Of a DNA stretch of 64,000 bases, positions 2,849 to 54,249 are shown piece by piece; within the stretch, counting starts at the first letter, position 1; the number at the start of each line of letters is the position of its first letter. Made by a program: the position numbers and the translations under genes. The DNA is from Dictyostelium discoideum. Taxonomy: Eukaryota. The stretch is taken from the NCBI GenBank assembly GCA_000004695.1, contig CM000152.2, positions 4,096,001 through 4,160,000 on the forward strand, written 5' to 3'. The notes beneath the pieces are model-generated. The model saw only the letters and a program-made list of their open reading frames with translations, made no database searches and was not told the origin of the DNA.

Positions 2849-3499
2849 TCATTCTGATAAACCAATGGTAATACACACTATGAGCACTAACAATAAGAAC
2901 ATTGAAAATAAAATAACGGAAAAAATTGCAAGTCCACGGGCAATTCTACTTTTTGATTTTAAATAAATCACATTTACACTATATATTATAATTTTAAATT
3001 TTAAATATTATTTTTAGAATTTTTTTTTTTTTTTTTTTTTTTTATTATTTTATACATACATCCAAGGAATAATGAAAAAGAAACCAGCAACGAATAAAAT
3101 TACTGCCGGAATAACATGTTCTTGATTTTGTTTGTACAATGAATGATGATAGATTTCCGGTGGTGGTATAATATTTTGAAAATCCCCTAACCCATATTGT
3201 GGTTGTTGTTGTTGTTGAAGATGGTTTCCATTTTCACATTGGTTATTTGAATTTAATTGTTTTTGTTGAGATTGGGGAACGTTTGATGGAACTTGAGCAT
3301 AAACAATTCCATTTTGTAATGGATTTGGTTGTTGTTGAGGGAAATATTCTGGGGGATTATTTAAAAATTGTTGATTTTGATTTTGATTTTTTTTTTTAGG
3401 ATCATAAGAAGGGATAAATTGATTTAAACTTTTTTTGTTATAAATATTTTCAAATTCCCCATTTAATTTTTGTTTTTTTTTTTTATTATTTTTTCCCAT
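2849..3499 (-). CDS. Small two-TM protein, tandem paralog A. Minus-strand join(2849..2978, 3060..3499), about 189 aa. It has a Q/N/P-rich N-terminus with a PPEY motif, TM1 (...[10 protein letters not shown]), a phase-2 intron, then the conserved exon VNVIYLKSKSRIARGLAIFSVILFSMFLLLVLIVCITIGLSE.
   Basis: The ORF 3050..3499 ends ...IIPWMYV*, but the sequence tgg at|gtatgt is a good donor. An acceptor tatatag at 2979..2980 (plus-strand ct) joins it in phase to a downstream open frame that is conserved in all four paralogs. Confidence 0.6.
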
Positions 3500-3513
3500 T
3501 TTTTTTGATTTTG

Positions 3514-3554
<41 letters not shown>

Positions 3555-3878
3555 TAATAATAATTATAATAAATAAATATTTATATATAATTCAAATTAA
3601 ATAAATAAATAAATTATAAAGAAAAAAAAAAAAAAACCACACAAATTAAATCTCATAAAAAAAAAAAAAAAAAATTAATTAAATAAATTAAAAAAAAAAA
3701 TACAAGCACAAATGGCTATTTTTATATTCAATAATTTCCCACAGGCATTTAAAATTCAAACATATTATTTTTGAAGACCACCATTTCTACAATAAGATAT
3801 TGCTGTATTAATTTTTTTTTATTTTTTATCTGATTTTCTAAAACTTATCACACCACCTCACCCCCAAAAAAAAACAAA

Positions 3879-3919
<41 letters not shown>

Positions 3920-3946
3920 ATAATAATATTAATATGATATAATTTA

Positions 3947-4399
3947 TTAATCAATAGTTGCGATCCCCCAAAATAATAATATAAATAAAGTTGATAGGAT
4001 TATTGAAAATACTGATATTATGCTGAACAAAATGAATGACGCAATACTAAATCTTCTAGCTATCTTATTATTACAATTAAGATGAATAATATTAACACTG
4101 TGATAAAATTAAGATTTAATTAAATTAATATTTTATTAATATAAAAAAATATTTTATTAAATATAAATTAAATATATATTAATTTACCTCCATGGTATAA
4201 TAAAGAAAAATCCTAAAATAAATAAAGTTAGTGAAATCCATGCTTTTTTTTGTTCATTTTTAATTTTAATTTCTTCTTCAATTCTCATTGGTTGAAAATT
4301 ATTAAAATAAGAATTTTGTAATTTTTCATCAACTTCATAATCTATTCCATTTTTATTTATATTTTTATTTAAAATTTCATTTTCTTCAATAAATGCCAT
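3947..4399 (-). CDS. Small two-TM protein, tandem paralog B. Minus-strand join(3947..4097, 4188..4399). It reads [10 protein letters not shown]...[11 protein letters not shown] | [50 protein letters not shown].
   Basis: Exon 1 ends cca tgg ag|gtaaat in phase 2. The acceptor cacag|t gives AGT, then the conserved [10 protein letters not shown] + helix exon. The NNFQP(M/L)(R/K)IE motif is shared with paralog C. Confidence 0.55.
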
Positions 4400-4954
4400 A
4401 ATTATAAAAAAAAAAAAAGTTTTATAAATTTTTTAAATAGAAAATTAAAAAAAAAAAAATATTTTAATAAAAATAGGATTTTACAATTAAAAAAAAATAA
4501 ATGAATAAAAATTAATATAAAAATAAAAATAAAAAAAAAGTCTTAAATTAATAAGATAAAATGGTAGTTATTAAAAAAAAAAAATTTAATAATAAAAAGA
4601 GGTGGTAACCAAATTAGTGGTAAATAGTGGTTTATTATTTATATTTTTTTAATTTGTTGGGGTATCTTAAAAAATAAAGAAAATTTTAACTATGCAAGAA
4701 ATTAATTTCTCCCAAATTTGAAAACACTATTTGTTAAACAAATTGTTAAAAACAATTTTGATTGTTCAATTTTAAAAAAAAAAAAAAAAAAATAATGGGA
4801 TTTTAAACCTTTTTTGAGAAACATTTATTTTTTTAAAGAAAAAAAAAAAAAAACATTCAATAATATTTGATTTAATTAAATCACAAAAATAATTTATAAA
4901 AAATACAAATTTTATTTAAATAACTTTTAAAAAAATCATTATGATTTTTGAAAT

Positions 4955-5399
4955 TTATCTATCTTCTCTATGACTATTATGCAAAGATGTGATTAAAAAA
5001 ATAAAAAAAATTACAAAAATCACTATTATGGCTATTGATAAACTAAACAAAACTACTGATGCGATACTAAATCCTCTTGCCATTTTATTTTTACTTTTTA
5101 TATTAATGACATTTATTCTATGAATATAGTTTTAAAAAAAAAAAAAAAATTTATGGTTAAAGGGGGGACTTTACTTTTTAAAATCAATTTATTAATACAT
5201 ACATCCAAGGAATTAATAATAAAAAACCCAAAACAAATAAAACTATTGAACATGTAACTTGTCTATCTTCTTTATCATTTTTTTCAATTTTTAATGGTTG
5301 AAAATTGTTTGAGTAGGATGGAAAATTAACACCTTCATCATACATTGGCATAAATTGACCATGGTCATTATTATTATTTTCTATATCATCTAATGTCAT
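4955..5399 (-). CDS. Small two-TM protein, tandem paralog C. Minus-strand join(4955..5117, 5203..5399). It reads MTLDDIENNN...VLFVLGFLLLIPW | I INVINIKSKNKMARGFSIASVVLFSLSIAIIVIFVIFFIFLITSLHNSHREDR*.
   Basis: The donor tgg at|gtatgt at 5202 and the acceptor ttcatag at 5118..5119 join in phase 2, restoring an open frame through the conserved ARGFSIAS exon. Confidence 0.6.
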
Positions 5400-5871
5400 T
5401 TTATTTTTTTTGTAATATATAATTTATTTAATTAATTTTAATTCTTTTTTTTTTGTTTTTGAAATGAATAGAAAAAAATAAAAAAATAAAAAAATAATCT
5501 TTAAATAGAAAAAAAAAAAAAAAAAAAAAAAAAAGAGAGAGAAATTCAAATATATACAAAAAAAAATGAAAATATTTAAATATTAATATTTGATTACAGT
5601 TTTTAATTTTTTAAATACTCAAGAAAATTTGCTATTGTTATTTTTTGATAACGCAATTAATGAGGAAAAAAAAAAAAAAACAAAATTTAGAAAAGTGTGG
5701 TTAGTTTTGGTTTTTTGGGCAATTCTTTATTAATGAAGATTAATCTATTCAATTTATCTTTTTTTTATAATTGTTTCAGAATACAATTAAAACTTTAATT
5801 TCATTATTATTTATTTTTTTATGGTATGTACAAAATTATTAATATCTTTTTATTTAAATTTTTTTTTTTTT

Positions 5872-6553
5872 TTATCCAGAAACTGATGAAATAACTGCTA
5901 TAAATAATAAAAGTATGAAAACAAAAGTAAAAATAATAGATAGATTGGATAAAGTTCTTGCATTTTTATTTCTACTTTTGAGCTATAATAATAATAATAA
6001 AAAATAATTAATAAAACAAACAATTAATTATTTTTTTTTTTATTTTCAAAAAAAAAAATTAATAAAATAATTATATACTTACAAATTTAATATTAACAAT
6101 CCAAAATATAACAGTAAAAAAACCAAGTATAAAAAATATTAAAGCAAATATAAAATGTTGTTGATCTTCATTATCACCATTCCTAACTATAATTTGAGGT
6201 AGTTGAGTATCACCATATGGAATTTGTTGTGTTTCATCACCCTGTATGGTGGTTGTTGTTGTTTGAGAATAATAAGTTATATGTAAATTTTCATCAAATT
6301 GTGCAGGTTGATTATTAAATAAATCATGAGGTGGATTTAAAGGAACTGTATCATATTGATTATCTAATTTATTAATTATTGGTTTATAAATTTCTAATTT
6401 TTCATTTTCATTATATCCCACATTTTCACCTGTTAATATTATATTTGCTGGTTTTGAAATTGATTGTGATAATGATAAACCTGATGACGGTGGTGGTGAT
6501 GGTGATACTTCATTATTGCTATAATTATTTTCATTATCAATTGGTATATTCAT
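5872..6553 (-). CDS. Small two-TM protein, tandem paralog D, larger at about 197 aa. Minus-strand join(5872..5982, 6083..6553). It reads ...FALIFFILGFFTVIFWIVNIKF | LKSRNKNARTLSNLSIIFTFVFILLLFIAVISSVSG*.
   Basis: A perfect donor aaa ttt|gtaagt at 6077..6082 in phase 0 joins the acceptor ttatag|ctc at 5983..5984. The second exon carries the same K-x-A-R-x-(F/L)-S motif plus a hydrophobic helix. Confidence 0.55.
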
Positions 6554-13357: not shown

Positions 13358-16300
13358 ATGTCATCGATTAGAGTAGTTTGTAGATTTAGACCACAAAATA
13401 AGTTAGAATTAGCGCAAGGTGGTGATTCGATTGTATCGATAGCACCAGAAAATGATAGTGTCACAATCAATGGTTCAGAATCAAATCATTCATTTTCATT
13501 TGATTATGTTTTTCCATCAAACACAACACAAAGAGATGTTTATGATCATGCTGCAAAACCAGTCATTGAAGATATTATGGCAGGTTATAATGGCACTCTT
13601 TTTGTATATGGTCAAACTGGTTCAGGTATGTACATATATATATACATATTTATTTAATATCTTTATAAAATTTACTAATATTAACAAATAATAAATAAAT
13701 AGGTAAAACATTTAGTATGACAGGTATTAATGATCCAAATGGTGATCAAGAGTTAAGAGGTATAGTACCAAGAATGATTGAAACAGTTTTTGAATTTATA
13801 TCGAATGCAGATGAAAATATAGAATTTATTGTTAAAGCAAGTTATATTGAGATCTATATGGAAAGAATTAGGGATCTCTTAGATACAAGAAAAGATAATT
13901 TAAAAGTTAGAGAAGAAAAAGGTAAAGGTGTTTGGGTAGAAGGTACATCTGAAGTTTATATTTATAGAGAAGAAGATATTTTAGATGTTATTAACACTGG
14001 TATTAGTAATAGAGCAATTGCTGAAACAAGTAAGATATATATATAATTATTATTTATATAAATAATACATATACACTAGAAATTATGTTAATGATATTAT
14101 TATTATTATTATTATTATAGGAATGAATGCAGAATCATCTAGAAGTCATAGTATTTTTATATTAACAATTCAACAAAAGAATTTAAAGGTTGGATCAATT
14201 AAAACAGGTAAATTATATTTAGTAGATTTGGCAGGATCAGAGAAAATTAGTAAAACAGGTGCACAAGGTACAACATTGGATGAAGCTAAAATGATTAACA
14301 AATCATTATCATCATTGGGTAATGTTATTAATGCATTGACCGATGGTAAATCGACACATATTCCATACAGAGATTCAAAATTAACTAGAGTTTTACAAGA
14401 ATCGTTAGGTGGTAATTCAAGAACCACTCTAATTATCAATTGTTCACCAAGTAGTTATAATGAAGCTGAAACAATCTCAACATTACGTTTTGGTAGTAGA
14501 GCAAAGAATATCAAGAATAAAGCAAAGATTAATCAAGAAAGAAGTGCTGCTGAATTGAAAATACTTTTATCAAAAGCTGAAAATGAAATTGAAAATCTTA
14601 AAGGTTATATTAAAGAATTAGAGACTGTTTCAGGTGTAACTGTTTCAAATTTAAAAAGTAGTGGTAGTGGTAGTGGTAGTGGTAGTGGTAGTAGTAGTAG
14701 TAGTAGTGGTAGTAGTGGTGGTAGTGGTAGTGGTGGTAGTAGTAATTTATCAAATTCAGTTAATTCAACTTCAAATTTAAATACCTCATCAAATACTTCA
14801 TCATCAAATGTAAATGCAAATGCAAATGTAATAACAACAAGTGTTTCAGCACCAACATCACCAAAAGATACAGAATTAATTAAAGTTTTACAAGAGAAAT
14901 GTATACAATTAGAGAAACAATTATTTAAAAAAGAAGAGGAGAAGAAAGAAATATTAGAACAATTGGAACAACAACAAGAACAAATTCAAGATAAGGATCA
15001 AGAGATTGAGGGATTGAATTCAATGATTGAGAGTTCGAATAATATTAATTCTTTATATCAAAATAGTACAAATGAAAATAGTGTATTGAATGTACAATTA
15101 TCTGAATTAAAATTAGCACTTGAAAAAAGTAGATTCGAAGCTACTGAACAATCTTTAACCATTGAAGGATTGAATGAAGAGAATCAATCAATTAAATCTC
15201 AATTGGAGATTTTAAAAGATCGTATTGCACAAAGTGGTGATTCCTCAATCGCTTCATTAGTACCATCAACTCCAAAATCCTCAGCTGAAATGGATCCATT
15301 AGCTACCGCTTCAAAACATGCAGATGAATGGAATGAAAAAGCTGAACAATTAAAATTATTACAAAGAACACCTTCAAAAGCTGTCGGTTCTTCAAAATCA
15401 AATACTGCAACTAGTTCACCAATAATTTCTTTAAATATTTCTGAATCTGATAATATTGGTTCTGGTGCAACAACAACAACTAATAATAATAATGCAACTA
15501 TTACACCTGCTACAAGTAGTAATAATAATGTTGAACAACAACAACAACAAGTTGAAGAACTTTTACCATCAGTAAATGAACAATTATTAGAAAGTGAAAA
15601 TCAAAAATTACAAAAGAGAATTCAAGAGATTGAATTAGAGTTTGAAACGTATAAGATTGCCAAAGAAAATTTAACAATGCAAAAAGATTTAGAGATTGAA
15701 CAATTATTAGAGAGTCAACGTATTAGTAGTAGTTTTGTTGTTGATCCACGTAACTTGGATGATGAATTGCCAGCAGAGATGATGTTACAAGCTGAACAAA
15801 TTCGTAAATTGATTGCAGAAAACTCTGAACAAAAAGTACATTTCGAGGCAACAAAGAATGAAAACTCGAAATTAAAGAATAGAATTGAAATGATTGAAGA
15901 GGAGACTAGACAACGTATGGAGGAGGAATTGAATGTATTGCGTGAACAAACCAATCAGAAACTATCGGAATTTGGGTCATTGAAAGAATCTTTGATTAGA
16001 GATTTAGAGAATAGATGTCAGAAAGTTATAGATCTAGAATTGGTTTTGGACGAATTACAAGACCGTATCGTGACTTTGAACGAGCGTCTAAAGAGAGTTA
16101 ATAAACCTGGTGGTGGCGATCAGGAGGCTGCTTTCGTTCAATCGAAATTGGATGAAATCACCGCTGTAAAACATCAATTGGTCATTGAGAATAATAAACA
16201 CAAGACAGAGGTTGAACGTTTGAAAAAGTTATTATCACATCGTGGTGAACATATTTTAATTTTAGAGAAAACAATGGCAATCAATCAAGAGAGTCTTTTC

Positions 16301-16714
16301 AAATTGGCTTTAAATCATAATGCATTAACCATTGAGCATGATCGTGCAAAGAATGAATTGGAGAAATTAAATAATTTATTATCTCAAGTTGGTGTCGATG
16401 CTCAAAATACTGGTGGTGCTCGTGTTGCTAGAGTTATTAGAGGTGGTGGTGGTAATAATCAATTAAAAAAATTTAATCATTCATCATCATCATCTACTTC
16501 ATCATCATCAGCTTTAAATCATTCATCTATAAATAATAATCATACAACTCCAACTCCATTATCTGCAAATCTTTATAGTAATACAAAAAGAAGTACAAAA
16601 GAATTAAATACTGGTGTAAAAGCTGAACCTTTATCATTATCTGGTTCTCCATTTAATACTTCAATACCTTCTTCTCCAAATCATACAAGTAGTAATAATA
16701 TTAATAACAATAGC

Positions 16715-16748
<34 letters not shown>

Positions 16749-17107
16749 TAGGTAATAGTGGTAATATTGGTGGTGTTGGTAATAATAATAGTAGTATAAG
16801 TAATAGTAATAATAATAGTAGTAGTAATTTAAACGCAAATTTAAATGGTAATACACCAGTTAAAATTACATCTGAAAATAGTTCATCTTCTTTATGGAAT
16901 ATATTTAAAAAGAAATCACCATCTTCAACACCACCTAGTTCAACAAATAATTTATCACCACAATCACCACAAACCCCATCTCATTTAAGTGCTGATGGAA
17001 GTGGTAATATTTCACCAAACCTTTCCCCACCAATTCCTGTCAATTTCTCATATACTCCTGCAGTTGTAACATCTTCAACAATTAACAAAGATCAACAAAA
17101 AGATTAG
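13358..17107 (+). CDS. kif3: Kinesin-1 (conventional kinesin heavy chain). Plus-strand join(13358..13625, 13703..14029, 14121..17107) gives 1193 codons.
   Basis: It opens [15 protein letters not shown]. The P-loop GQTGSG|KTFSM is split by intron 1 (g|gtatgt ... aaatag|gt). Switch regions NAESSRSHS and LVDLAGSEK are present, followed by a neck, a long coiled coil, a (GGT AGT)n Gly/Ser linker and an S/N-rich tail. The 1193-aa length matches my recollection of DdKif3, but I cannot fully exclude kif5. Confidence 0.75.
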
Positions 17108-18267: not shown

Positions 18268-19562
18268 AAAAGAAAGTTTAAAATATTGATTTATTATTTT
18301 TTTATATTATGTTTATTATTATTATTATTATTATTTTTTAAAAAAAAGCAATTGTAACAATTGGTGGTGCAATTTCATCAAGTGCAACTAATCCATTAAG
18401 TTTAGTTGCATCATTAAGAATTATTTTAGGTCTTGGAGTTGGTATGTCATCAGGAGTGTGCCCATTGATGGTAGCAGAAGTAGTACCAGTTGAAAAGAGG
18501 GGTGTATATGGTTCAGTTTTTCAATTATTTATTACACTTGGATTGTTATGGTCAAATGTTATGGGTTTATTATTAATTGAATCTGGTATACATAATTGGA
18601 GATGGATGTTTGCAATTGGTAGTTTACCAGGATTTTTTATGTTATTATGTTGGACAGTTTTAAATGAGTCACCAGTTTGGGTTGAAAATCAAAGATTAAA
18701 AAAAGAAAGAAAATTACAAGAGTCGGCAATTTCAAATTCTAAACCAAAAAAGAGTTCATTTAGAATTTTAATGGAAAAAAAGAATAGAAGACCATTGTTT
18801 ATTGGTGTGATTTTAGCAACTTTCCAACAATTGACTGGTATCAATGCTTTTATGTATTTTTCAAATTTAATTTTCTTTAAAGCTGGATTTACTGGTGAAT
18901 ATGGTGCTATTACTTGTTCTTGTATTTTACAATTATGGAATGTATCATTTACAATTATTGCTGCATGCACAGTGGATCGATTGGGTAGAAGACCATTGCT
19001 TTTCATTGGTTCAATTGTTATGACATGTGCTGATTTATTGATTGCATTGTTTTATGTTGCTTTGACTGGTAAGGTTCAAGGTTGGTTATCAATTATTTGT
19101 TTATTTATTTTCGTTGCAGCATTCGCTATGTCCATTGGTACATTATTTTGGTTTATTGTAAATGAAATCTTTGATCCAGAGGCAAAAGATATCGGTGCAC
19201 CAATTTTAATTGGTTTACAATGGTTATTCAATATGTTACTTTCTTTAACATTTGTGGGTGCAGTTCCATATATTGGTGATAGTACAATGTTTTGGATTTT
19301 TGGTGGTATTGGTATAACTTGTGTTGTTTTATTGGCAATTTTCTTACCACCTGAAAAAATTCAACAAAGTGAATTAGAATCTGACGTTTTACCAGATTCT
19401 TTTAAACAAGCAGCTACAGTTTATAATGATGAAGTTGAATTATCACCATCTGAAAAAAAGAATAATTTTTATATTCCAAATGAAGATGCCGAAGAAATTT
19501 TAGAAAATTTATCTGAACTTCCAAGTGAAAATATGGAAATTCCTAGAAATATAGAAAATTAA
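17808..19562 (+). CDS. MFS sugar (or inositol) porter-family transporter. Plus-strand join(17808..18207, 18349..19562), about 537 aa.
   Basis: The 12-TM layout has the motifs GGLIFGYNTGIIGPAL and LADWIGRKTVVLLTG|AIVTIGG (split by a phase-1 intron, donor gtaaat at 18208 and acceptor aaaaag at 18347..18348). It also has VAEVVPVEKRG, NESPVWVENQRL (PESPRWL-like) and PPEKIQ (PETKG-like). Confidence 0.8.
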
Positions 19563-20091: not shown

Positions 20092-20174
20092 ATGAATATT
20101 GAAAATAATAATAATAATATTATTAATAATATTAATAATAATTCAAATAATGATTCATTAAATGATTCTACTAC

Positions 20175-20229
<55 letters not shown>

Positions 20230-21309
20230 CATATAAGTATTATTAATGGTGATGATAATAATGTATTATTTTTAAAAGTTTGGAGAAATAAATATTTAAG
20301 ATATAGAATATTTCATCTATTGAAAAAAAGTTCAATTAATAGAATTAAAGAGTATAATAATTGTGAAGAGATAAAAAATTTAGAAAATTCATATTATATT
20401 AAACATTTAAAATTATTAGAAATTTCACCAATTCCAATTAATGGTATTCCAAATTCAGTCAGATTGTTAAAATTGAATTGTAATTTTAATTTAAAATTAT
20501 TGGTTGGATCATTTTCACTATCAAAGAGATTAGAAAAATTAAAATTGGGTGAAATTTTCAATCAAACTATAGAGAAAAATCTATTACCAAATAGTTTAAA
20601 GAAAATTAAACTTGGTTTAAAATTTAATCAATCATTAGAACATTTACCATCATCAGTTACTTCAATAAAGGTTAGTGGTAGTTTTCTAAAGCCTGAAACT
20701 ATACCATCAACAGTAACAGAATTGAAATTATATTTTTTCTTTAATAAAGAGAATTTAACAACTAATGATATACCAAAGTCAATAAAAACATTACACATGG
20801 ATATTTGTTTCAATAATATATTAGTAGTTGGATTTATTCCAAATTCAGTCACAAAATTAGTATTGGGTCCAAAATTTTTTGAATGCTCATTAAAAGCTGG
20901 TATTATTCCAAATTCAGTTACAGATTTAACAATATCACTTGGTTGTCTATTAAGTCCAATTAAGAAAGGTGTAATTCCAAATTCAGTTAAAAAATTAAAA
21001 ATCATTGATTTAATTGGTAGTATTTCATTCAACTTAAAGAAAGGGTCAATTCCAAATGGTGTTGAATATATAGACTTTAGTGATTTTCAATCCAATTATT
21101 TAAAGTTGGATAGATGTTTAATACCATTCTCTGTGAAACAATTAATTATTAATAATGCCGAAATAGATTTATCAACATTAAAACATTATAGTAGAATCTC
21201 TTTATTTTTTAAAAAACATTATCCAATAATTTTGCTTTTACTCTTAATAATACTTTTTGTTTCATTTATTTCAGCTCTTGTATATATAATATCTAAACTT
21301 TTTTTCTAA
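20092..21309 (+). CDS. FNIP-repeat protein, single exon, 405 aa. It has a poly-Asn N-terminus, about 12 FNIP repeats and a C-terminal transmembrane helix.
   Basis: The units (G)(I/V)IPNSV(T/K)xLxLGxxFNQ recur about every 22 aa (IPNSVRLLKLNCNFN, IPNSVTKLVLGPKF, IPNSVTDLTISLG, IPNSVKKLKIIDL, IPNGVEYIDFSDF). The terminal segment ILLLLLIILFVSFISALVYIISKLFF is hydrophobic. Confidence 0.75.
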
Positions 21310-30392: not shown

Positions 30393-30842
30393 TTTTCCAT
30401 CTATATTATGTATATATAATTAGCTAATAATATAATATTTTAGAAAATTATGGATTTATCAAATAAAATAGAGGAAAAGGTTGAACCAATTTTTAAAGAA
30501 TCATTAAAGAGATTCATAAATGTAAATAATAATAATAAAGAAATTGTTGATGATAATAATGAAAAACAAAATAAATATGATGAAAGAATATTACTAGTAT
30601 GTTTAAAAACATTTCAAACTATAGATAAATTAAATGTACCATATAAATTATTTAAAACATTAATTGTTAAACCTAGATTAGCACAAATTGTTTCATTACG
30701 TAATTTAGAGATTAATAAATCAACAACTGATGGTTTATCACAAATTTATAATTCAATCATTGAATTTTTAAAAAATCAATGTTCATCATTCTTTGATATT
30801 TCAAATTTAATTAATAATAATTTAAAAGAAAAACAATCAAAC

Positions 30843-30899
<57 letters not shown>

Positions 30900-31555
30900 C
30901 AAATTAATAATAATAGTAATAATAATAATAATAATATAAATAATAATAATATAAATAATAATTATAATAATAATATCATTTTATATAATAATTATAATTT
31001 TATATCACAATCAGTTTTACCAGAAATTGATGAATCACTTGGATTTTTTAAACAAATATTTGCAACTGGTATACCAGATTTATTTTATAAGAATTATTAT
31101 TTAACATTTAATTTCATTCAATCGATTGAAGTGAATTTCTTAACCAATAAAGAATTATTAACTCAGTTTAGACAATCAAGTTCATATTCAAGTTTATGGA
31201 AGAAATGGAATTTCGCTGTTTATTTTCAACTTTGTTTTACAAATATTGCACAACATTTTGAATTCAATTATTTAAGAATACCATTATTTGATCAATTAAC
31301 TTTACCAACTAATAATATTACTAATAATAATAATAATAATAATGAAAATAATAATGAATTTTATTTAAAATCAACAGATGGTTTAAGATTATCAATGGAT
31401 AAATGTTGGTCAAATTCAAATTTCATTTTTGATCTATCTTCAAAGTTTTTCAAACTATTCCTTCAATTAATTGCAAGATATGATACTTTTATTAGTGATA
31501 CTTTAATACCATTAGAATTAGAATTACAACAACAATTACAACAACAACAATTACA

Positions 31556-31586
<31 letters not shown>

Positions 31587-31899
31587 AATATTGGTGATTC
31601 AGTTATAAAAATCACTCCAAAATCACCACCTTCACTATCGAATCAATCACCAATATCATCATCAACAACATTAAATAATAAACAATCATCACCTGAAAAT
31701 TTCATTTATATAATTTCTGATATCTATAAAATTAAATCAAAAATATCAACAAATTATAAAGAATTAATCATTAAAACTATTGGAAATCATCAAAATCAAC
31801 ATGAAATTTTAAATTTAATTAATGGTATGTAAAAAAAAAAAAAAAAAATGATTTTTTTAAAAAAAAAAAAAGATTTTATTATTAATTTTTATTTATTTA

Positions 31900-36806: not shown

Positions 36807-39800
36807 ATGGATAATATATATCAAAGAATAGAAAATTATCTTATAAAATTATTTCAAACAATATCAGAAACAAATAATAACAATAATAATAATAATACAA
36901 ATAATAATGTTGGAATTAAATTTGAAAATGATTTATTATTAGTTAATGAATTAGGATCAATTATATTAAAAGAATTGGTTCTTGAAGAAGAGATTGGATT
37001 GGTTGCATCATTATTATTTACAGGTGATCATAGTTTATTAAAGTATTTAGAAAAGTCATCAACCATTTCCAATAAAGAGAATGTGAAGATAAAAGTGTCA
37101 ATATTGAATTTAATAGCAGAGTTTATCGAGATATTACAAGTTAGAACTGATGATTATGCAATTGCAATAAAGAATACCTGTGTATTGGTATTCAGAAAGG
37201 ACCAATCCCATTCAGTCCAAGCCGCAGCTTTTGGCCCTATTAAAAAGATATTACATCTAATGTCTCGTGTACTTAAACAGGGTTCAATCGTTGCAGAAAG
37301 TTTTGGAGTGAGTGAGATGACACAACTGTTTTTATTGCAATTCACATGTGGAAAGCTAACTCAAACAGTTCGTGGTGAAATTATAGTTGTGCTTGGTTTA
37401 TTCACTGAATATTTCTCAAGTAATATGTGCGATCGTAATCAGCAATTATCATTCATATTCATGGAGACGCTCGGTGGCCAATTGCGGTCAAAGTCACCCG
37501 AGTCCACTTTAATTCAGTCGTGTTTGAAAGGATTGAATTCGTTATTGGTTCATTTCAGTGGCGATTTCATTGCAAGTGATCCAAAGAATGTTCAATTGAT
37601 ATATCAATATGTTTACATTTGTTTGGATCCTGCATCGTCGACTCAAAGATTCGAAATTCCAAGAGCAGCTATGAAAATCGTTGCGAGACATGCAGTTTTA
37701 TTACGTCAGTATTTGGCAGAACACTCACAACCTTTCTATACACGTATTGAGCATTGGTGTAATCATATCAATAAATTAAATCGTGATATAGCATTCACGG
37801 CAGTCGATTCATTCTTTCAACAAATTTCAAAGGAACTTACAAGTGGTAATCGTAGTTTAGAAGCTGATCAATCAACTTTTAAATTCTTTATTCGTAAATT
37901 CTATTCAATCTTTGAAAATAACAATTCATCACGTTTTGAACTTTCAATTGCAATTAGAGGTTGTGGTAGATTCGCTTCACCTGTTAAATCTTTTATGGGT
38001 GAATGGGAATTAAAATCCTTATTAAATTCTTTATTTAAATTTTCAGAAAAATTAATGGTTGTGTAAGTTGTTTTTTTTTAATTAAATTTAAATTAAATTA
38101 AATTAATAATAATATTTCTAATTTTATTTCTATTTATTTTTCTCAAATAGTAAAATTGAAAATATTGATGAAATTACATTACATTTATCAAGTTTTATAA
38201 ATGCATTCGCATGTATTTTATATGAATTAAATGAATTGGAATTTTGGTATTTAGATCATATTGAACAAGTTTTAGAAACTTATTTTATAATATTTCCACA
38301 TTTATTTGTAAAATCAAGAGATAGATATTTTAAAGCAGTTAATAGATTAATTAGCTCATTATTTTATCATGGTGAATATTTAAAGATATTATTAAGTAGA
38401 TTTGTAAAGAAAGGATTATTAATTACATTTTCAAAACCAAATGATTCAATTAAAAATTTAATTACAACTGCAAATACACCATTTTATCAAGTTTATAAAG
38501 ATCTTTGGTATAATCTTTTAAATCCAACAATTGATACAATTGATAAAGATTTAAATTCAACAATAAAAAAAGAAAATAATAATAATAATAATAATAAAAA
38601 TAAAAATAATAATAATAATCAAACATTAACAAAAGAAGAAATTTCAAAATCAATTAAAAAATTAGTTTATGATGAGATTGTTTCAAGTATTTTATCAATT
38701 ATAAAGAAATTAGATTTACAATACCAAAAGGATGAAAATGATAATAATAGTAATAGTAATAGTAATAATAATAATAATAATGATCAAGATAATAATAAAA
38801 TTTCAATTATTGAATATGAATCAGAAATTAATCAATTAAAACCAGTAACATCAAAAGATATTGAATTATTTTTAGGATTAGTTGAATTTTTTAAATTATT
38901 CATTTCAAAGTATAATACAGAATTATTTGTTCAATGGATTTATATATTTGGTAAAGAAATGATTAGTTTTTCAAAGAAATATCCATTAATTAGTGGTTTT
39001 TATAAATTGGTTCAAATTGTAATGCAAATTTGTAAATCTCAAAAATATTTTAATGAATTACAACAAGATGATAATATAAATTCAGTTATATTTAATAATC
39101 AAATTATTGATGAACAACTACAACAGCAACAAGATATTATGGATATTGATGATACTGATAATAATAGTAATAGTAATAATAAAATCAATAAGAAATTAAC
39201 AAATAGTTTGGAAGAAGATAAAAATAATTGTTTTATATTATTTAAAAAATATATTAAAGAAGTTAGTAATTTTATTAGTCATTATAAAGATGAATTATTA
39301 AGTTCATGTATTGAATTATTATTATCATTACCAAAACAATTGATATCAATACCATTGTTAGTACCAATTGCAAATTTAGCATTCCAATATGGTATTAGTT
39401 ATTTACCATTAGCTCATGTTGGTTTGAATGCTATCGAATATTGGAATTTAGTTGTACCAGATCAGGTTCATAAACATTTAGATCAATTATTACCAAGTTT
39501 AAATGATTATTTAAAGATTTCAACAAATAGTTCAGATTCAACTTCAGGTGGTGATATAGATATTGATAGTGGTGGTAGTATGGGAGGAGGAGGAGTTGTA
39601 CCACCACCATCATCATCATCAAGACATAGAAAAATGAAATTTAAATCAAATAGTTCATTAATTGATCCAAAACAATTACAATTTAAAACATCAATTGAAG
39701 ATTTACAAAATAGAATTATTAGATTATTAGGCCAATTGGGTGGTGATAATGTTCATTTCCTTGGAAAAGTTAGTTTAGTTGGTGAAGAGATCGTTAATGG

Positions 39801-40537
39801 TGTGGCATGGGACACTGAGCCAAAGGTATTAATTAAAATACCATTTGCAGATCAAAATAATATTGATATTTATTTGGACGTAATTTTACCAAATGTTGTA
39901 AATCTTGCAGAGAAATCACCAAATCGTCAAATTAAAGTTGCAGCAGGTGAATTACTTCATTCAGTTTTGTTAATGATGATTGGTAATTCAGCAAATCAAT
40001 CACAGGCTAATCAAATATCGTATAGTAGATTATATAGAAAGATATTCCCATCATTAATTTGTTTATCGACAGATGTTGAACAAGTTACCAAACAATTATT
40101 TCAACCATTAGTTTTTCAAATGATTCATTGGTTCACTCGTAATAAGAAACAAGAGTCTGACGATACAATGAATTTATTGAATGCAATAGTTGATGCTGTT
40201 GGTAACCCATTGGATGGTGCAAGAAGAGATTTCGCAGGTCAATGTCTTTGTGAATTTGCAAAATGGTCTCTTAAAAATACTTCAGTTAAACAACAAGAAA
40301 AGAATGCTTTCAATTTCAAATCAATCTTAAAAAGAATCTATAGTCTTGCACATCATCCTGATCCTTATAAAAGATTAGGTGCTGCAATTTCTTTCAATCA
40401 ATTATATCGTATTTTCCGTGAAGAAGATTCATTAGTTGATCAATTCATTTTTGAAATTTTACATAATATATTTTTTAGTTTAAGAATTGGTGATGATTTA
40501 ACAAATACAAGTAGTAGTAAAAACAATAGTAATAGTA

Positions 40538-40568
<31 letters not shown>

Positions 40569-41977
40569 TAGTGAAGATGGTACAGAAGATTCAATTGTTG
40601 AAATTGCATCAAAATATTCAAATGTTTTAGCAGCATTAACAAAAGTTATAATTAAACGTGCTGATATGTTAAATAAACCATCAAATACTAGAAGAGAACA
40701 TAAAGATTTATCACAATTTGTACAGTGGGTATTCCAAAATGGTTGTAGTAGAACTGAGTCAATCGTTAGATATGAATCAATGATACTTTTCACACAATTG
40801 GTAACATTATTACCAAATATTAAAACACCATTACAATGGGTAAAAGAACGTATAAAATCTAATGGTATTCAATTCATTGTTTCAATTGCAGAACAACAAG
40901 GTGGTGGTGTTGGTGGTGGTAGTAGTAATGGTAATACAAGTTTAGGTAGAATTCCAAAGATTGAAATTGGTAAACATAAAGATATAGAATTTTGGTTTAG
41001 AAATTTATCAACAAGTTTAAATATTTATTTATGGTTCTTTTCAGAAGGTTTCTTTGAACCAATTCAAATTTTAACAAGTAGAGAATTTAAATCTTCATTA
41101 TTATCAAGTGCTTTTCATACTTTTACAACTCAATTTTCAATGTTAAATTTTAATTCAAATTTAAAAACAAACCAACAACAACAACAACAACAGGTATCAA
41201 TGTTTTCATCAATGACACCAAAAGAAATTGATCAATTTAATAGATTAAAATGTAATGTAATTACAAATTTATTTGGTTTATATATTTTATTATTAGAGAA
41301 ATATAAATTTGAACAAGTTATAGATTATGGTGGTGTTGCTTTTGTACAATTGTTGGTTAAATGTTTAATGGATCCACAATCAGTTGGATTTGTAAATAAT
41401 TATTTAGAAGAGAGAGAAGTTGAACTTTCAAAATCATCACGTCAAGATATTCGTAATTTAATGTCTCGTACTTTTAAATTCCCACCACTTTTAGAAATTA
41501 TTAATAATATTATAAAATTATTAATTCAAATTAAGCCAAAATATAATGATATATTACATAAAGAATTAATGGAATATATATTACCAAATAATAGTAACAA
41601 CAATAATAATAGTAGTAGTAGTGGTAATAACAAATCAATGTTTAGTTTAATTGATATTAGACAATTAATTAATACAGAAGGTACAGATAGGTTAATTCAT
41701 TTAATTCATTCATATCAAATACTTTATAAATATAATTTATTGGATTCAATATTATTAGAGAATTATAATGAACAATCTGAACAAGGTATTCAAGATTTAC
41801 CAAAATCTTCACTTGAATTTAGTGAATTTATCTTTGATTATTTATTTAATAATTGTGAGAATTTATCACCTTCAAAATTATTAATTTCAAAAGAATTAAT
41901 TCAATTGGCTTTAACAATTGGTATTAAACCAATTAAATTATTATCTTTAATAATTAATCCAAATGTACAAAATACAA

Positions 41978-42011
<34 letters not shown>

Positions 42012-45000
42012 TACAACCACAACAACAACAAGCACTAATAATAATAATGATAATAATAATGAATTTATTAAAGATATTCATGATATTTTTTATAAAACAT
42101 TATTTACAGAAATTAATAATTATATTTCAAATAATTTTCAATTGTTTTTACCATTGTTGGCAAATAGAATTATTGAAACTAATCAAATTCATAAGGTTTT
42201 AAATGATGTATGTATAATGAAGCAACAACAACAACCAAATCGTGGATTTAAAGATATTATTGAATCAATTGTATTATTCTTAAATTCAATTTCAGAATGG
42301 ACATTAAATTCAAATTTGAAATTAGTTGAAAAAGAAAATATCATTGAATTTACAAAGAACCTTATAAAGATTGATCCAATACAATTCTTTGAAAATAAGC
42401 ATTGTTATGAATTTGTTTATAATATAATAACAAATTATTTATGTCGTTCAAATCCTTTAACATTTAAAAATAAGGTATTGGTATTATTACCTTATTTATT
42501 ATCTTATCCAAAACATAATAATTTTGATTTAGTAAGTACAATTATTTAATTTTTTTTTGTTTCATTTTTAAAATAATTATTTATTTTAATCGTACACTAA
42601 CTTTTAATTTTTTTTTTTTTTTTTTTTTTAAATAAAAATATACCAGATAAAACAAAAATTAAATGAAATTGTTGTTTATGATTTCCCATTAAATTCAAAA
42701 GATTTAACAGTTAAATCACCAATTTATAATGAATATATTACATGTATAGAAAGATTATTAGAGACATTTGAACTTACAAAGAATCCATTAGTAATTGATA
42801 CATTATTACATGTTTTAAAAGAAACTGATCATACACATATTAATTATATTAATTTATCAATTGAAAGATCAATTTTATCAACAAATGATATTGAAGCAAA
42901 AGAAATATTTAGTCATTGTTTTGAGTAAGTTTTTAAACAAACTTTTAATTTTATATTATAATTATTATTTAATTTATTAACTCTTTTTTTTTTTTTTTTT
43001 TTTTTTAATAGATTATTTTTAAATCATTATGATGAATTAAAAATTACATTAATTGATAAATTTTGTGTACCATTAATTAGTCATATGAAAGAGAATATAT
43101 TAGTTCAAATTTTTAGTCAACATTTAAGTTCTTTAATGTCAATTATTCAACCATTGCAACCAAAATATTTATCAGATTCACAAGAAAGAAAATCATCAAT
43201 TATTGAAAAGATTTGTTGTTTCCATTTAATTGAAGCATTATATCAATCATTACCATCAGCAATTATAAAGGAGAAAATTAATCCATTCTTTTATGATAAA
43301 CCAGATGGTAAAGGTACAGAGTTGACAGCAGCCATTATGAAAGCAGCCCATTCTGCAAAATCAGAGAAATTAACATCCGATGATAAATATGTTACAAGAT
43401 CATTATGTACTAAGTATCATGGTGCTGCTTTTAGTGCATTGGCAAGTGTTATAGTTTCAACTCAAACTAAAGAAAACTTTTTCCATGTTTTCTTCTTTAA
43501 AGAGAATAAAGATAAAAATGAATACCTTTGGGAGAACATTATCGATACTGATCAAGTTTTTAACTTTCAACCAGAGACTAATTTCCTTGTTTCCTACAGT
43601 ACCCCTCAATCATTATTTGCAAATGATTTAAGATATCTTTCAAGTCAATATTTAGTTGATAGTAGTTTAAGTCAAGATTTTATTGCTAAAAACTTTTTAG
43701 AAGGTGATAATAATTCAACAACAAATAATAATAATGGTGATGATGGTATTATAATGCAAGGTCAGTCGCAAAGTGGTGATAATGAAAATCAAATATCAAA
43801 TGATATAGAAATTGATCAAGTTAATTCAAATCCATCAATGATTGCAATGTTAAAAATTATTGATTTCTATCAAAAGAAATTTGTAGTCACACCACCATCT
43901 TCAATATTATTTGGACAACAATCACAACAACCAAAACCAACAGTTGGAGATATGCCAAAATGGATGTTTGAAATTTATCAAAAACTTCAACAAGGTGTTC
44001 ATCCAAATATTGTAATTTTTATGATAAAAATCATTATCAATAGACCACAATACTTTGAAAGATTTCATGAACTTTGGATACCAATTCTAATGGATTATGT
44101 AGTTTCAGAGGGTAATGGTGGTAATGGATTACATTACTTTGTACGTGATGTTTGTTTTATTTTATTGAAATGGCCAAATATTTATAAATCTCAAGATGGT
44201 GGTGGCGGCACTACATTAGAAAAACATCTTTCAAAGTTTGTAAATCATTTAATGAAGAATACCTATTGTACCGATAGAAGAATTTTAAAGAGTAATTTAA
44301 ATATTGTGAAATCATTTGTTGAAAGGTGGAAATCACTTTTCAAAGTTGATAAATCAATCATTTTAGAGTTATTATCAACAAAAGGTGATTTCAAGAGTAA
44401 AAGTAGACAAATTAAAACAACTGGTTTAGTATTATTATCAATTTTATTAAGTAATGGTTATCCTGCATATGATAAAGAATATGATTCAAATACCATTAGT
44501 GAATTTAAATTTTATCAAGTTTTATTAGATCATTTACAAGATTTTAAAGAACTTTATGATGCTGCATCTGAAGTTTGTGGTATGATTTTATTATATCTTT
44601 CAAAGCAACAACAATCACAACAACAACAACAACAATCAATATTCCCACAATTATTAAAAGATAAAATTAATTCAATATTAAATAATAATGAAAATCAAAG
44701 AGCATTTAGTTGTCTTTATTTTATTGGTTTACATTATCCATTATTTTTACAAGGATTTTATGGTAAAATATTTAATTTATTACCACAAATTTCAAATGAA
44801 ACTAGATTGATTGCATTAAATATCATTCATTGGTGTGTTGAAGATATTCAAGATCTTTATACGAAATTGAAATCAAATAATATTGAAAATTTAATTAGAA
44901 TTAGAGAAGGTGAGATTCAAGTGGTAATCTTAAGAATTCTTTATAAATTGGTTCAAAAAAGAGATACTACTTTTGGTACTGTAAATCAAATTCTATCATT

Positions 45001-48000
45001 ATTACTCTCGAATAATTGGTTCACTTCAAATGTTACTAATGAATATAGTCGTTCGCTATATTATGATATAATCATTTATATCTATAATAACTTTATTGAA
45101 TATCAAGATCAATCAAATGAAAATAGTAAAGATTTAGTATTATCATTATTGATTGGGTTATCAGACGAAAGTGATTCAATCAATAAGAAACTTTTACAAT
45201 TTTGGGATAATAATAGTAAAACTTTATCAGCATCGAGTAATCAAAGATTACAACAATTCTTTGATATTATGTATTCACCAGAGACTGAATCGAAATGGGT
45301 TGCAAATAGTTGTTGTCTCTTATTCCAATTATGTAATAGATCAAGTGATTTCACTAAATTACTTTTCGATAAACCATTAAGTGAATGTACATTCAAAGAG
45401 GTACAAGTCGATTCTTCTTGGCAACATAGAACTTTAAATATGAATCCATTATTTAGTTCTTCTCAATATGGTATTGATGATGCTACTACCGATGAATCAA
45501 ATGGTGATTCTATGCAATTGGATGAAATTAGAGCAACTCAAGCTCCAAATTTTACATTAACTCAAACTGCATTTAGTGAATTTTATCCATCATCTTCACA
45601 ATCTTATGGTGGAACTAATAATAATACAGGTAGTAGTCAATTATCATCATCATCATCATCAAGTGGTAGTCAAAGTAGTAGTCAAAATAATTCATCTTCA
45701 AAAAGAAAACAAAAAATTACAAATGATCCAAAATTAATTAATAATTCTGAATTAAGAAGAAGATTTAAAAAGATTGATGATCGTGGTGCAGATGAAAGAA
45801 TTGTAAAATTTGCAAGATTACAAGTTAAAAGAAATATTGAAAGAGAAGCATACTTTGAAAAGAGTAAACAAGCACGTGAAAATCAAATTACAATGATTAG
45901 GAAGTATAGAGTTGGTGAATTACCTGATATTCAAATTAAATTACAAGATATTATTAAACCATTACAATTATTATGTCAACGTGATTCAACTATTGGTGTT
46001 AATGTATTCTCGTCATTGTTTACTGCTTTATATAAAAATACACCAAAAGAAAGTATTAGAACATTCCAATGTAATATTAAGAAATTAATTGATTCAATTG
46101 TTGAAAGATGTAAATTTAATTCAACCCTTGTCTCATCGATATTGAATATCTCTGAAAAGAATTTAGAATTTTCACCTGAATTTTCAAAGATTAAAGATAT
46201 CTCTTTAAATTCAAATAATCATCCAATGGCAATCATACTTTGTGAGAAATTAATATTATCATTACAAAATACAACTAAAGCATCAACAACTAATCAAGCA
46301 CAAAAGTTACAACAACAACAGCAATTGAATCAAGGTTGGGATAGTTTAAGAGAATTATATAAATCATTGAAAGAGGATGATATTATCATGGGTTTAATTG
46401 AAAAACAAATGGGTGGTGATATACCATATACTAAAAAAGCATTGGAATTTGAATTAAAAGGTGATTGGGTTAATGTTTTAAAGGTATATGATGAAGCAAC
46501 TTCTAAATTAGAGAGTGGTGAATTGAATCAGTATCAAGGTAATCTCTCAGAGAGTGAAACTGCGTTATGGGAGAATGGTCGTTTAGAATGTTTTACAAAA
46601 CTTTGTAATTGGTCAGCATTAAAAGATAATTTCAATAGTTATTATCCAAACCCAAATCAAATATTTAAAGAAAAGAATTGTGATTTACTTTTAAGCTATT
46701 TCTTTGAATTCAATTTAAAGGTTAAAGAGAATTGGAATTATTTATATCAATTCATTGCTGATTTGGCAAATACTAAACAATATCAATATTTAGAGAATAA
46801 ATTCCCTGGTGAACTTGCATTCTTGGAGGTAACAAGATCCGATCATAATAAAGCTTCCTATTATGTTTCAAAGTTTTATCAAGCCTTTAAACATCAATGG
46901 TCATCATCTCATCCATTAGCAATTGAATCACGTCATAGAATCTTACAACCACTTCAAAAGATTGTAGAGGTTGAAGAATTTTTAAATTTAACTTCAACTC
47001 CAATCATTAATACTTTAAAATTGGATACCCTATTAACTCAATGGAAGAGTAGATTCCCAACTAAATTAGATGATATCATGGTTTGGGATGATTTAATCTT
47101 TTATCGTTCAGTTTTATTAGAAAAGATTTATGAAAGATTCTCAAGTTTTACCTCTGATAAAAGTTCCGATGAAAAGGTTAAATCAACTTTAATTCAAGAA
47201 AGAGCTATACTCTATCATAAAATGTCAAAAGGTGCACGTAAATTAGGTAATATTGTTGTATCAGAGATTTATTTCCGTCAAGCAGTTAAATCATACCCAA
47301 AAACAAAGGATAATGATTTAGCTTTCCCTTTGGTAACTTCATTGATTGATATCTATTGTACAAAAGCTAGAAATTCACCATCACCAATTGAAACTTTAGA
47401 TAGATTTGTAAAGGCTTTGAAATTTATTGAATCAAAAAAAGATGAAGAATCAATTATAAATTCAAATGAAAATCTTCAAAAATATTTAATGATGCATGGT
47501 GATATCTTTTGGGATATTTATCAATTAGATAAGAAATTAGGTTCAACATTAGTAATTGATTCTTTTAAAAAGAATTCTTTACCAATTAATTTAACTTCAA
47601 TTCCAATTAATTCATTAAAAGATGAATTATTTAATTCAACTTTTAAATGTTATAGTGAATCAATTAAATTACATCAAAAATCAACAAATTTATTAAATAC
47701 AACATCATCATCACCTTCTTTAAGTATTTCTTCTTCTTCTTCTCCTTATTCCTCTACTTCTTCCTCTTCACAACCAAAATTATCAAATGAAATTTTAATT
47801 GAAAAAACAAAGACAAAGAGTGCTCATTTGAAATTTGCAAACTTTTGTGATAATATATTAAAGGATAAAATTTCTCAACAAACAACACCAACACAATTTA
47901 ATGAAGAAGTTATTGATTTAGCAACATCAGTTATAGTTTCAACATTAGAGGCAATTAAAGAAGAGATACCAGGTTCAGTTGATAAATTCCCAAGATTATT

Positions 48001-53239: not shown

Positions 53240-53274
<35 letters not shown>

Positions 53275-54246: not shown

Positions 54247-54249
<3 letters not shown>
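52918..54249 (-). CDS. Mitochondrial inner-membrane insertase OXA1/YidC family. Minus-strand join(52918..53205, 53281..54249), about 418 aa, with a presequence-like N-terminus MINALKRVPINGMNKKLFIKSFS.
   Basis: The core reads LPWVSIFVGTAIAIRVLTLPLAIRNQRDAAKM...MADPYYILPLVSSIFQY...CFLPLVFTIHFAA|SLNIYWAVNSMIFAFTNWFLKS, typical of Oxa1/Cox18 (human PIYILPLAVTATMW..., [20 protein letters not shown]). The intron is gct gct|gtaatg ... ttttttag in phase 0. Confidence 0.75.

Follow-up and report, generated by a model that had tools for sequence, protein, structure and literature searches.

A tandem array of four spliced genes in Dictyostelium discoideum points to an unnamed family of small membrane proteins with a possibly PEN-2-like architecture

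Introduction

PEN-2 (PSENEN, PF10251), the smallest subunit of gamma-secretase, is a membrane protein with two hydrophobic domains. Its half-helices of residues 8–23 and 27–43 form a U-turn around Gly22/Pro27, and a helix of 32 residues (50–81) spans the membrane (PMC10790097), with the N-terminus cytosolic and the C-terminus lumenal (PMC10790097, PMC4546279). Here, a stretch of 64,000 nucleotides of Dictyostelium discoideum DNA was analyzed (GenBank assembly GCA_000004695.1, contig CM000152.2, positions 4,096,001 to 4,160,000 of the forward strand; hereafter the window), in which positions 2849–6553 hold a tandem array of four minus-strand genes, copies A, B, C, and D, for small proteins that also have two hydrophobic segments. 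A pen-2 gene proper is reported from another place in the D. discoideum genome (PMC3352040).

Other described proteins resemble the products of the array in several respects. NDFIP1/2 and yeast Bsd2 are small membrane proteins with a Pro/Tyr-rich N-terminal region; PY motifs on their cytosolic side bring ubiquitin ligases of the Nedd4 WW-HECT type to cargo in the membrane. The dispanins/CD225 proteins (IFITM, PRRT1/2; PF04505) combine a Pro-rich N-tail able to carry PPxY with a first hydrophobic domain that possibly does not span the membrane, a basic cytosolic loop, one spanning helix, and an outside C-terminus. TMEM230/TMEM134 (PF05915) form a two-helix hairpin, and plant "60S ribosomal protein L18a-like" proteins have a Pro/Tyr-rich N-tail, the sequence FxxGFFxxxIPWxxG, a basic loop, and a second helix.

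The proteins of the array follow the layout of the wider family described below: a disordered, variable N-tail, an acidic patch, a first hydrophobic segment (segment 1, FxxGFFxxxPWxxN/G), a basic loop of about 10 residues (YxKSxNxxAR), and a long second helix (helix 2, xxAxxSxxxF). As an overall explanation, we lean modestly toward four real spliced genes of an unnamed membrane-protein family whose members would be PEN-2-like, re-entrant accessory or adaptor proteins; the parts of this explanation differ in strength and are graded where they are discussed.

Results

Gene structures of the array

The first open reading frames (ORFs) of the four copies lie on the minus strand at 3050..3499 (A, 149 aa), 4184..4399 (B, 71 aa), 5184..5399 (C, 71 aa), and 6071..6553 (D, 160 aa), each followed after a gap of approximately 80–100 nt by a short ORF in a different frame. 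A preliminary description of this DNA had proposed that these ORFs are truncated and that splicing at 3060/2978, 4188/4097, 5203/5117, and 6083/5982 bypasses the stop codons that end them. Joined at these junctions, GT..AG introns are removed and open frames of 189 (A), 120 (B), 119 (C), and 193 (D) codons result (Table 1). In a window with a G+C content of 21.6%, the introns have an A+T content of 81–95% and the exons one of 72–81%. The proposed intron phases also hold: in A, B, and C the intron follows directly on the Trp codon plus two nucleotides (TGG AT/GTATGT or TGG AG/GTAAAT; the slash marks the splice site), and in D it lies 16 nt downstream of this site, five codons later (AAA TTT/GTAAGT). 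For copy B, the assigned intron is the sole GT..AG combination that preserves the conserved loop of the family.

The four copies are related to each other, with tblastn expectation values (E) between copies of 1e-7 to 2e-15. Their proteins share 31–32% overall identity and 11 invariant columns, which are concentrated in the C-terminal 65 residues and include G139, W146, N149, A160, R161, and S167. Both motifs proposed earlier are present in looser form, as (A/L)GF(F/L)(F/L/T)(I/L/V)I(P/F)W in helix 1 and (K/R)(I/M/N)AR(G/R/T)(L/F)(A/S)(I/N)(F/A/L)S in exon 2, and the leading "K-x" of the latter fails. Start-to-start distances between neighboring copies are 900, 1000, and 1154 nt, a small correction to the earlier spacing of about 1.0–1.2 kb. 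No fifth copy was found by tblastn across the window.

Table 1. Coordinates of the array features in the window (positions include the stop codon where so remarked).
Feature	Position	Strand	Remarks
Copy A (DDB_G0281143) exon 1	3060..3499	-	Lys/Gln/Asn/Pro-rich N-tail, acidic patch, hydrophobic segment 1 to Trp146 + 2 nt
Copy A intron	2979..3059	-	81 nt, GTATGT..TATAG, phase 2, 95% A+T; D. firmibasis orthologue uses same site
Copy A exon 2	2849..2978	-	remainder of segment 1 (IVNVIYL), basic loop (KSKSRIAR), then helix 2 and stop codon
Copy A PPEY motif	3344..3355	-	residues 49–52; PPGY in every A orthologue examined
Copy B (presumably DDB_G0281145) exon 1	4188..4399	-	orthologues of 117–120 aa annotated with same structure
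Copy B intron	4098..4187	-	90 nt, GTAAAT..CACAG, phase 2
Copy B exon 2	3947..4097	-	includes stop codon; 3% divergence and no indels versus D. cf. discoideum
Copy C (DDB_G0281147) exon 1	5203..5399	-	spliced product identical to EAL66870/Q54UD3
Copy C intron	5118..5202	-	85 nt, GTATGT..CATAG, phase 2
Copy C exon 2	4955..5117	-	includes stop codon
Copy D (DDB_G0281149) exon 1	6083..6553	-	runs through WIVNIKF; spliced product identical to EAL66871/Q54UD2
Copy D intron	5983..6082	-	100 nt, GTAAGT..TATAG, phase 0
Copy D exon 2	5872..5982	-	includes stop codon

Evidence for the spliced genes

The spliced products of A, C, and D are exactly identical to deposited proteins of strain AX4, namely DDB_G0281143 (EAL66868/Q54UD5), DDB_G0281147, and DDB_G0281149. 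Thus, contrary to what the preliminary description had implied, the gene models are not new; at least three of the four already stand in the reference annotation (GenBank/UniProt) as hypothetical or uncharacterized transmembrane proteins. For copy B, neither the 120-aa spliced product nor the 71-aa unspliced ORF was found in the protein collection. The accession series (EAL66868, -70, -71; Q54UD5, -3, -2) has a gap that fits copy B, which presumably is DDB_G0281145, and the AX4 model of this gene may differ from the model backed by the B orthologues.

The array was also looked for in other Dictyostelia. In D. cf. discoideum, the full array is present, D, C, B, and A are all annotated as two-exon models, and the eIF3h-MKT1-array block is kept. 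The same block is kept in D. firmibasis, where the A and B introns occupy the identical site (TGGTT/GTATGT and TGGAG/GTAATT), and two-exon models of the same structure occur in D. citrinum. The syntenic slot of D. purpureum holds one gene, in which a single exon of 408 nt codes for the entire protein including segment 1, loop, and helix 2; further intronless relatives were found in P. violaceum and, with two more genes, in D. purpureum. Transcriptome assemblies are the source of several family members, and for one member from D. purpureum the source gives the name "expressed protein".

The ratio of nonsynonymous to synonymous substitution rates (dN/dS) versus D. firmibasis was 0.24 for A and 0.22 for B overall, and 0.32 (A) and 0.18 (B) for exon 2 alone, values which indicate that exon 2 is under purifying selection. 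Between AX4 and D. cf. discoideum, exon 2 differs by 3–7% (all exons, 3–13%) and the introns by 25–40%; for copy A, these values are 4% for exon 2 and 25% for the intron. The introns contain many indels, like intergenic DNA, and exon 2 has two gap columns, in copy D only. The coding conservation of exon 2 claimed earlier is thereby borne out. Considering these five independent lines (the deposited proteins, the orthologue models, the intronless D. purpureum gene, the dN/dS values, and the contrast between exons and introns), the region almost certainly contains four real spliced protein-coding genes.

Two deposited models of relatives depart from this structure. The D-like gene of D. firmibasis has an extra A-rich insertion of approximately 60 nt within the coding sequence of segment 1, which is either a second intron or a disruption, and its deposited 168-aa model looks misbuilt. 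An A-like protein of 171 aa (P0025) is without the conserved VN..YLKSKS loop (..IIPWIRVARIF..); a downstream acceptor was apparently used, probably as an annotation error.

History of the array and its intron

In a neighbor-joining tree of the 83-column core with 300 bootstraps, the four copies never formed a clade (0 of 300). Copy D grouped with a different subfamily (D. purpureum DICPUDRAFT_96717 and AX4 DDB_G0271152) at 60% and A with the syntenic D. purpureum gene at 53%, and B and C were weakly paired at 35%. When the paralogues are compared, their synonymous sites prove saturated or nearly so (proportion of synonymous differences, pS, 0.55–0.84). Because of this tree and this saturation, the array appears as part of an old, repeatedly duplicating family and not as the product of a single recent fourfold duplication; the relatedness of the four paralogues described earlier stands.

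Tandem duplication is recurrent in the family, as the intronless D. purpureum genes DICPUDRAFT_75060 and DICPUDRAFT_75059 form a separate tandem pair on another scaffold, and DICPUDRAFT_23634 shares a scaffold with the syntenic gene and differs from it by four accession numbers. The intron is found repeatedly at or near the Trp codon, yet not in every member. As described before, A, B, and C have it in common, and so do their orthologues; it is not family-wide, given the intronless relatives and DICPUDRAFT_96717, whose 71-nt intron lies inside the Trp codon (TG/GTAAGT..AG/G), 3 nt upstream of the A/B/C site.

The wider family

In an exhaustive search of 1.84 billion cluster representatives, a family profile built from 17 sequences yielded 272 of them at E ≤ 1e-3, of which 32 reached E ≤ 1e-10. 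Orthologues near-identical to B, C, and D scored E = 1e-33 to 1e-42, and copy A (P0003) was found at E = 2.8e-34 in a smaller search with a profile of the four window proteins. A word-indexed protein search with the 97-sequence core returned three proteins only. Dictyostelid members come from D. purpureum, with a minimum of seven genes of which some lie in tandem, and from P. violaceum, H. album, T. lacteum, and A. subglobosum, so that the named sources span all major dictyostelid groups. Outside the dictyostelids, members were found in Clastostelium, Entamoeba histolytica, E. dispar, and the euglenozoan Entosiphon, the remainder being environmental eukaryotes. The family thus extends across Dictyostelia, other Amoebozoa, and scattered protists, and it tends toward tandem duplication.

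In 97 diverse cores, the signature begins with [DE] (72%), three variable positions, [SA] (92%), three hydrophobic residues, F (91%), and two hydrophobic residues. Segment 1 continues with G (100%), [FW] (99%), F (72%), three variable positions, [PVI], W (98%), two variable positions, and [GN] (84%). The loop reads x2, [YF] (88%), x, [KRN], S (94%), x, [NSD], x2, A (88%), [RK] (94%), and helix 2 x, [LF], [AGS] (98%), x2, S (96%), x3, F (67%). Copies A, B, and C show every signature column, and D deviates by F in place of P. The N-tails are without signal peptide and have a median length of 68 residues (maximum 241), with 15% Gln, 12% Pro, 8% Asn, and 7.5% Tyr.

Every member is labeled hypothetical, uncharacterized, or "transmembrane protein". 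Pfam was scanned with the four window proteins, with their 17 closest relatives, and with 150 members, and no Pfam family reached its cut-off on the window proteins. Weak recurring matches (NEDD4_Bsd2, TMEM_230_134, SUR7, Tetraspanin, and Frag1) behave as generic membrane-helix noise, and the UniRef label "DUF4190" on one D. purpureum member was not reproduced with current Pfam. Foldseek against the Protein Data Bank (PDB) gave nothing at E ≤ 0.001, and nothing significant was obtained when all PDB sequences were searched with the family profiles by hmmsearch; the best matches of the latter (lipoprotein signal peptidase, insect odorant receptor, PRRT1, and ghrelin receptor; E 0.01–0.2) were treated as spurious. 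Judged from the shared signature, the representatives very probably form one coherent, unnamed family that has no Pfam model. The analysis adds a definition of this family of about 270 representatives, with a sharp signature and a wide protist distribution.

Some members are of unusual composition. P0126 carries an N-terminal VWA domain and is probably 5'-truncated. In P0103, an LSD1-like CxxC..CxxC pattern and seven consecutive Lys lie ahead of segment 1. The environmental proteins P0132 (244 aa) and P0134 (323 aa) contain two complete modules of tail, segment 1, loop, and helix 2 per ORF, unless these are fused gene calls.

Membrane topology

The four products had been described as double-transmembrane proteins. 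Two hydrophobic segments are indeed present, but two spanning helices are not established, as segment 1 may be a re-entrant hairpin. Charge was counted over 151 members: the loop between the segments holds 553 Lys/Arg versus 80 Asp/Glu, the N-flank 238 versus 493, and the C-tail 120 versus 166. The strong excess of basic residues in the loop argues for its cytosolic location, and a C-terminus on the outside is suggested by Cys-rich extensions after helix 2 in five members (P0035, P0037, P0143, P0152, and P0167), with a PSI-like CxxC..CxWC pattern that is clear in P0035, P0037, and P0152. From these residues, a cytosolic loop together with an outside C-terminus is probable.

If the N-tail is cytosolic and the C-terminus outside, segment 1 must be re-entrant. 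We hold a re-entrant segment 1 with a cytosolic tail to be possible, with limited confidence. It is favored by the length of the tails without a signal peptide, by the Lys-rich N-terminus of copy A, by the poly-Lys stretch and CxxC..CxxC pattern of P0103, and by PPxY motifs, which occur 40 times in the N-tails versus 15.8 expected in shuffles (z = 6.1). The hinge expected for a PEN-2-type hairpin was also looked for: G is invariant, W is present in 98% and N/G in 84%, P occurs in A, B, and C, and a break is predicted between G and P. In AlphaFold2 models calculated with no templates, copy A has helices 120–139, 144–154, and 158–188, with a predicted local distance difference test score (pLDDT) of 86–97 over the hydrophobic region, and copy C has helices 42–60, 64–73, and 77–118, with a pLDDT of 64–83 around the break and 93–98 in helix 2. 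In both models the N-tail is disordered and the helix is interrupted just behind the invariant Gly; in the model of C, Pro is exactly the first residue of the helix that follows.

Several observations weigh against this arrangement, and most of them fit a plain two-pass hairpin. There, segment 1 would be a kinked transmembrane reverse signal-anchor, the Pro/Gln/Tyr/Thr-rich N-tail and the C-terminus would both be exoplasmic, and only the loop would be cytosolic; in that case the low-complexity tail would be exposed at the cell surface or in the lumen, where it might be glycosylated, and the PY motifs would be irrelevant. The acidic N-flank disfavors a cytosolic tail, and the charge bias of loop, N-flank, and C-tail as a whole is the strong one expected of the plain hairpin. 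The N-tails are poor in Lys/Arg (4.9% versus 10.9% Asp/Glu), as expected for translocation without a signal peptide. With 20–25 hydrophobic residues, segment 1 is able to span the membrane. Unless they are fused gene calls, the double-module proteins P0132 and P0134 are self-consistent only if both ends of a module lie on one side of the membrane. Pro is found in just 39% of members and is replaced by Phe in copy D. In P0126, the first strand of the VWA domain appears to be missing; the 5' end of the ORF may therefore be truncated, and a signal peptide is possible. The plain hairpin nevertheless seems doubtful to us, if still a serious candidate, since tails of up to 241 aa have no signal peptide, the start of copy A is rich in Lys, and P0103 has both a run of seven Lys ahead of segment 1 and the CxxC..CxxC pattern. 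Moreover, the PPxY enrichment is directional (40 versus 24 for the mirror motif Y.PP), and AlphaFold2 breaks the helix after the invariant Gly and gives no continuous helix.

Neighborhood of the array

The window matches chromosome 3 of D. discoideum AX4, where the array lies downstream of MKT1. Besides MKT1 and eIF3h, the window contains genes for a kinesin (14123–17107), a sugar transporter (18444–19562), an FNIP-repeat protein (20092–21309), COG2 (30450–31832), and, on the minus strand, an Oxa1-like protein (53269–54249). On the plus strand, DNA-PKcs (36807–49996) is represented by three large ORFs with N-terminal, CC1/2, CC3, CC5, FAT, PI3K, and FATC regions; it is an ordinary multi-exon gene, unrelated to the array.

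Discussion

Working model and function

Conservation in the family is strongest in the loop of 10 residues and, within each helix, along one face, and the tails evolve freely. This distribution suggests a membrane-embedded docking module with a variable tail. In the model that we favor, the basic loop would lie on the cytosolic face and the C-terminus on the exoplasmic side. Segment 1 would be a helix-turn-helix hinged after the invariant Gly, with Pro, where present, starting the next helix; as in PEN-2, it would dip into the membrane from the cytosol and leave the low-complexity tail there. The face formed by Gly, Trp, Asn, and Ser could pack the hairpin and dock onto a partner membrane protein. 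The proteins might then serve as small accessory or adaptor subunits embedded in the membrane, and their variable tails would recruit soluble factors; one candidate site is the PPxY motif in copy A. Such an accessory or adaptor role is proposed tentatively, from the pattern of conserved residues. DDB_G0281147 (copy C) is among 17 restriction enzyme-mediated integration (REMI) sites that gave insensitivity to the chemorepellent AprA, with no validation by targeted knockout or rescue (PMC9073555). That this unvalidated insertion is the sole published link found for the genes or proteins of the array counts against the proposed role.

A more specific adaptor function had been hinted at in the preliminary description, which compared copy A with NDFIP-type proteins for its PPEY motif. 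In agreement, the motif is PPGY in orthologues of A, the tails are enriched in PPxY family-wide, and NEDD4_Bsd2 is the commonest match below threshold, seen in 9 of the 17 closest relatives in consistent register (best E 0.0011). However, against the cut-off of 24.7 bits for PF10176, B reaches 14.7 and C 11.3 bits, and A and D give no match; the match consists of one hydrophobic helix at the end of the profile, and the signal largely vanishes across the wider family. With a manually entered sequence of human NDFIP1, hhalign gave 1.4%. Three transmembrane helices and several PY motifs characterize NDFIP/Bsd2 proteins, whereas two hydrophobic segments are seen in the sequences and in both AlphaFold2 models, and copy A has a single PPxY. 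As stated earlier, PPEY is confined to copy A; the PY motif is absent from B, C, and D and from the D. purpureum A orthologue. A function of the NDFIP/Bsd2 type is therefore very improbable, and the hint is not upheld.

The chance that the genes are artefacts, with exon 2 non-coding and the first ORFs ending at their in-frame stops or with the conserved frame belonging to the plus strand, is negligible: in-frame stops do exist and plus-strand ORFs of 30–44 aa overlap the exon-2 regions, but intronless and transcriptome-assembly homologues code for segment 1, loop, and helix 2 contiguously, exon 2 has a dN/dS of 0.18–0.32 and is nearly indel-free between strains versus many indels in the introns, and deposited proteins equal the spliced products, so that both a plus-strand exon 2 and unspliced genes were rejected.

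Comparison with known systems

TMEM230/TMEM134 gave weak matches in 6 of the 17 closest relatives, the best of 16.9 bits against a cut-off of 26.8, with just one helix, at the profile end, covered by the match. The dispanins come near the family in overall plan, but their loop is about 10 residues longer and its conserved residues are different. PRRT1 matched weakly on loop and helix 2 (E = 0.22), CD225 gave no match in any Pfam scan of window proteins, relatives, or members, and hhalign against a manually entered IFITM3 sequence gave 8.7% on helix 2 only.

The plant L18a-like proteins, themselves an uncharacterized family without a Pfam model, resemble the family in segment 1. Alignment of the family with 18 real plant sequences by hhalign gave 87% and a pairwise E of 4e-6, over only 25 columns (helix 1). 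Their loop (R-x-D-x-R-E-K-x-G) and their CC-G-x-G motif have no counterpart in the family.

PEN-2 and the family both have Gly, then Pro, then W-(L/I)-V-N in the first domain, a basic cytosolic loop, and a helix of approximately 31 residues with a conserved Ser, and the break after Gly in the AlphaFold2 models of A and C mirrors that of PSENEN around Gly22/Pro27. When the family was aligned by hhalign with five manually entered PEN-2 sequences, 66% (over 59 columns) was obtained with one family alignment and 57% with another; the G, W, N, and S of the family fell on G22, W30, N33, and S60, with an insertion of 8 residues in the PEN-2 loop. With the Pfam PEN-2 profile, two distant members scored 25.7 and 25.3 bits, just above the cut-off of 25, and others 14–24 bits, in the same register throughout. 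The two members at cut-off, P0140 and P0163, are single-exon genes in compact eukaryotic genomes (assemblies GCA_041937235.1 and GCA_026419775.2) and are either true PEN-2 genes or family members. Among the window proteins, copy C scored 14.4 bits, below the 25-bit cut-off, and A, B, and D gave no match.

A number of points speak against kinship. The PEN-2 profile used with hhalign consists of only five, manually entered sequences, and against human PEN-2 alone the values fell to 5.8% and 8.1%. By hmmsearch of the family profiles against PDB sequences, PEN-2 was not found at E ≤ 10, and a spurious ghrelin receptor match reached E = 0.011. In the Pfam scan of 150 members, unrelated families scored similarly (SUR7 2.3e-5, Tetraspanin 3.5e-5, Claudin_2 3e-5). 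The C-terminal tail of about 20 residues with a DYLSF-type motif is absent from the family, and the Pfam matches end at profile positions 64–72 of 93. Taken together, true homology of the family to PEN-2 appears unlikely on the present alignments, though it deserves consideration.

The two groups also differ in build. The spacing from G to W is 7 in the family and 8 in PEN-2. PEN-2 has a short N-terminus, approximately 8 more loop residues, and a conserved C-terminal tail needed for complex assembly, whereas the family has long low-complexity N-tails and almost nothing after helix 2; A and D end a few residues past this helix, and B and C carry unrelated tails of 3–10 residues.

The sole element of wider interest is thus the unproven PEN-2-like architecture in a broadly distributed family without a Pfam model. 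Conceivably, although we consider it doubtful, the array and the protist family at large are distantly related to PEN-2, in which case the PEN-2 fold would not be confined to gamma-secretase but would form the core of an unrecognized, expanded family of small accessory subunits with long cytosolic low-complexity tails. If this kinship is true, the partners could be intramembrane proteases of the presenilin/SPP type or other amoebal membrane complexes, with the L18a-like membrane proteins of plants perhaps as a third branch. Gamma-secretase is dispensable for the viability of Dictyostelium. Should the PEN-2-like architecture hold, the family would offer a handle on the origin of the PEN-2 fold, and Dictyostelium a system for the study of PEN-2-like accessory proteins.

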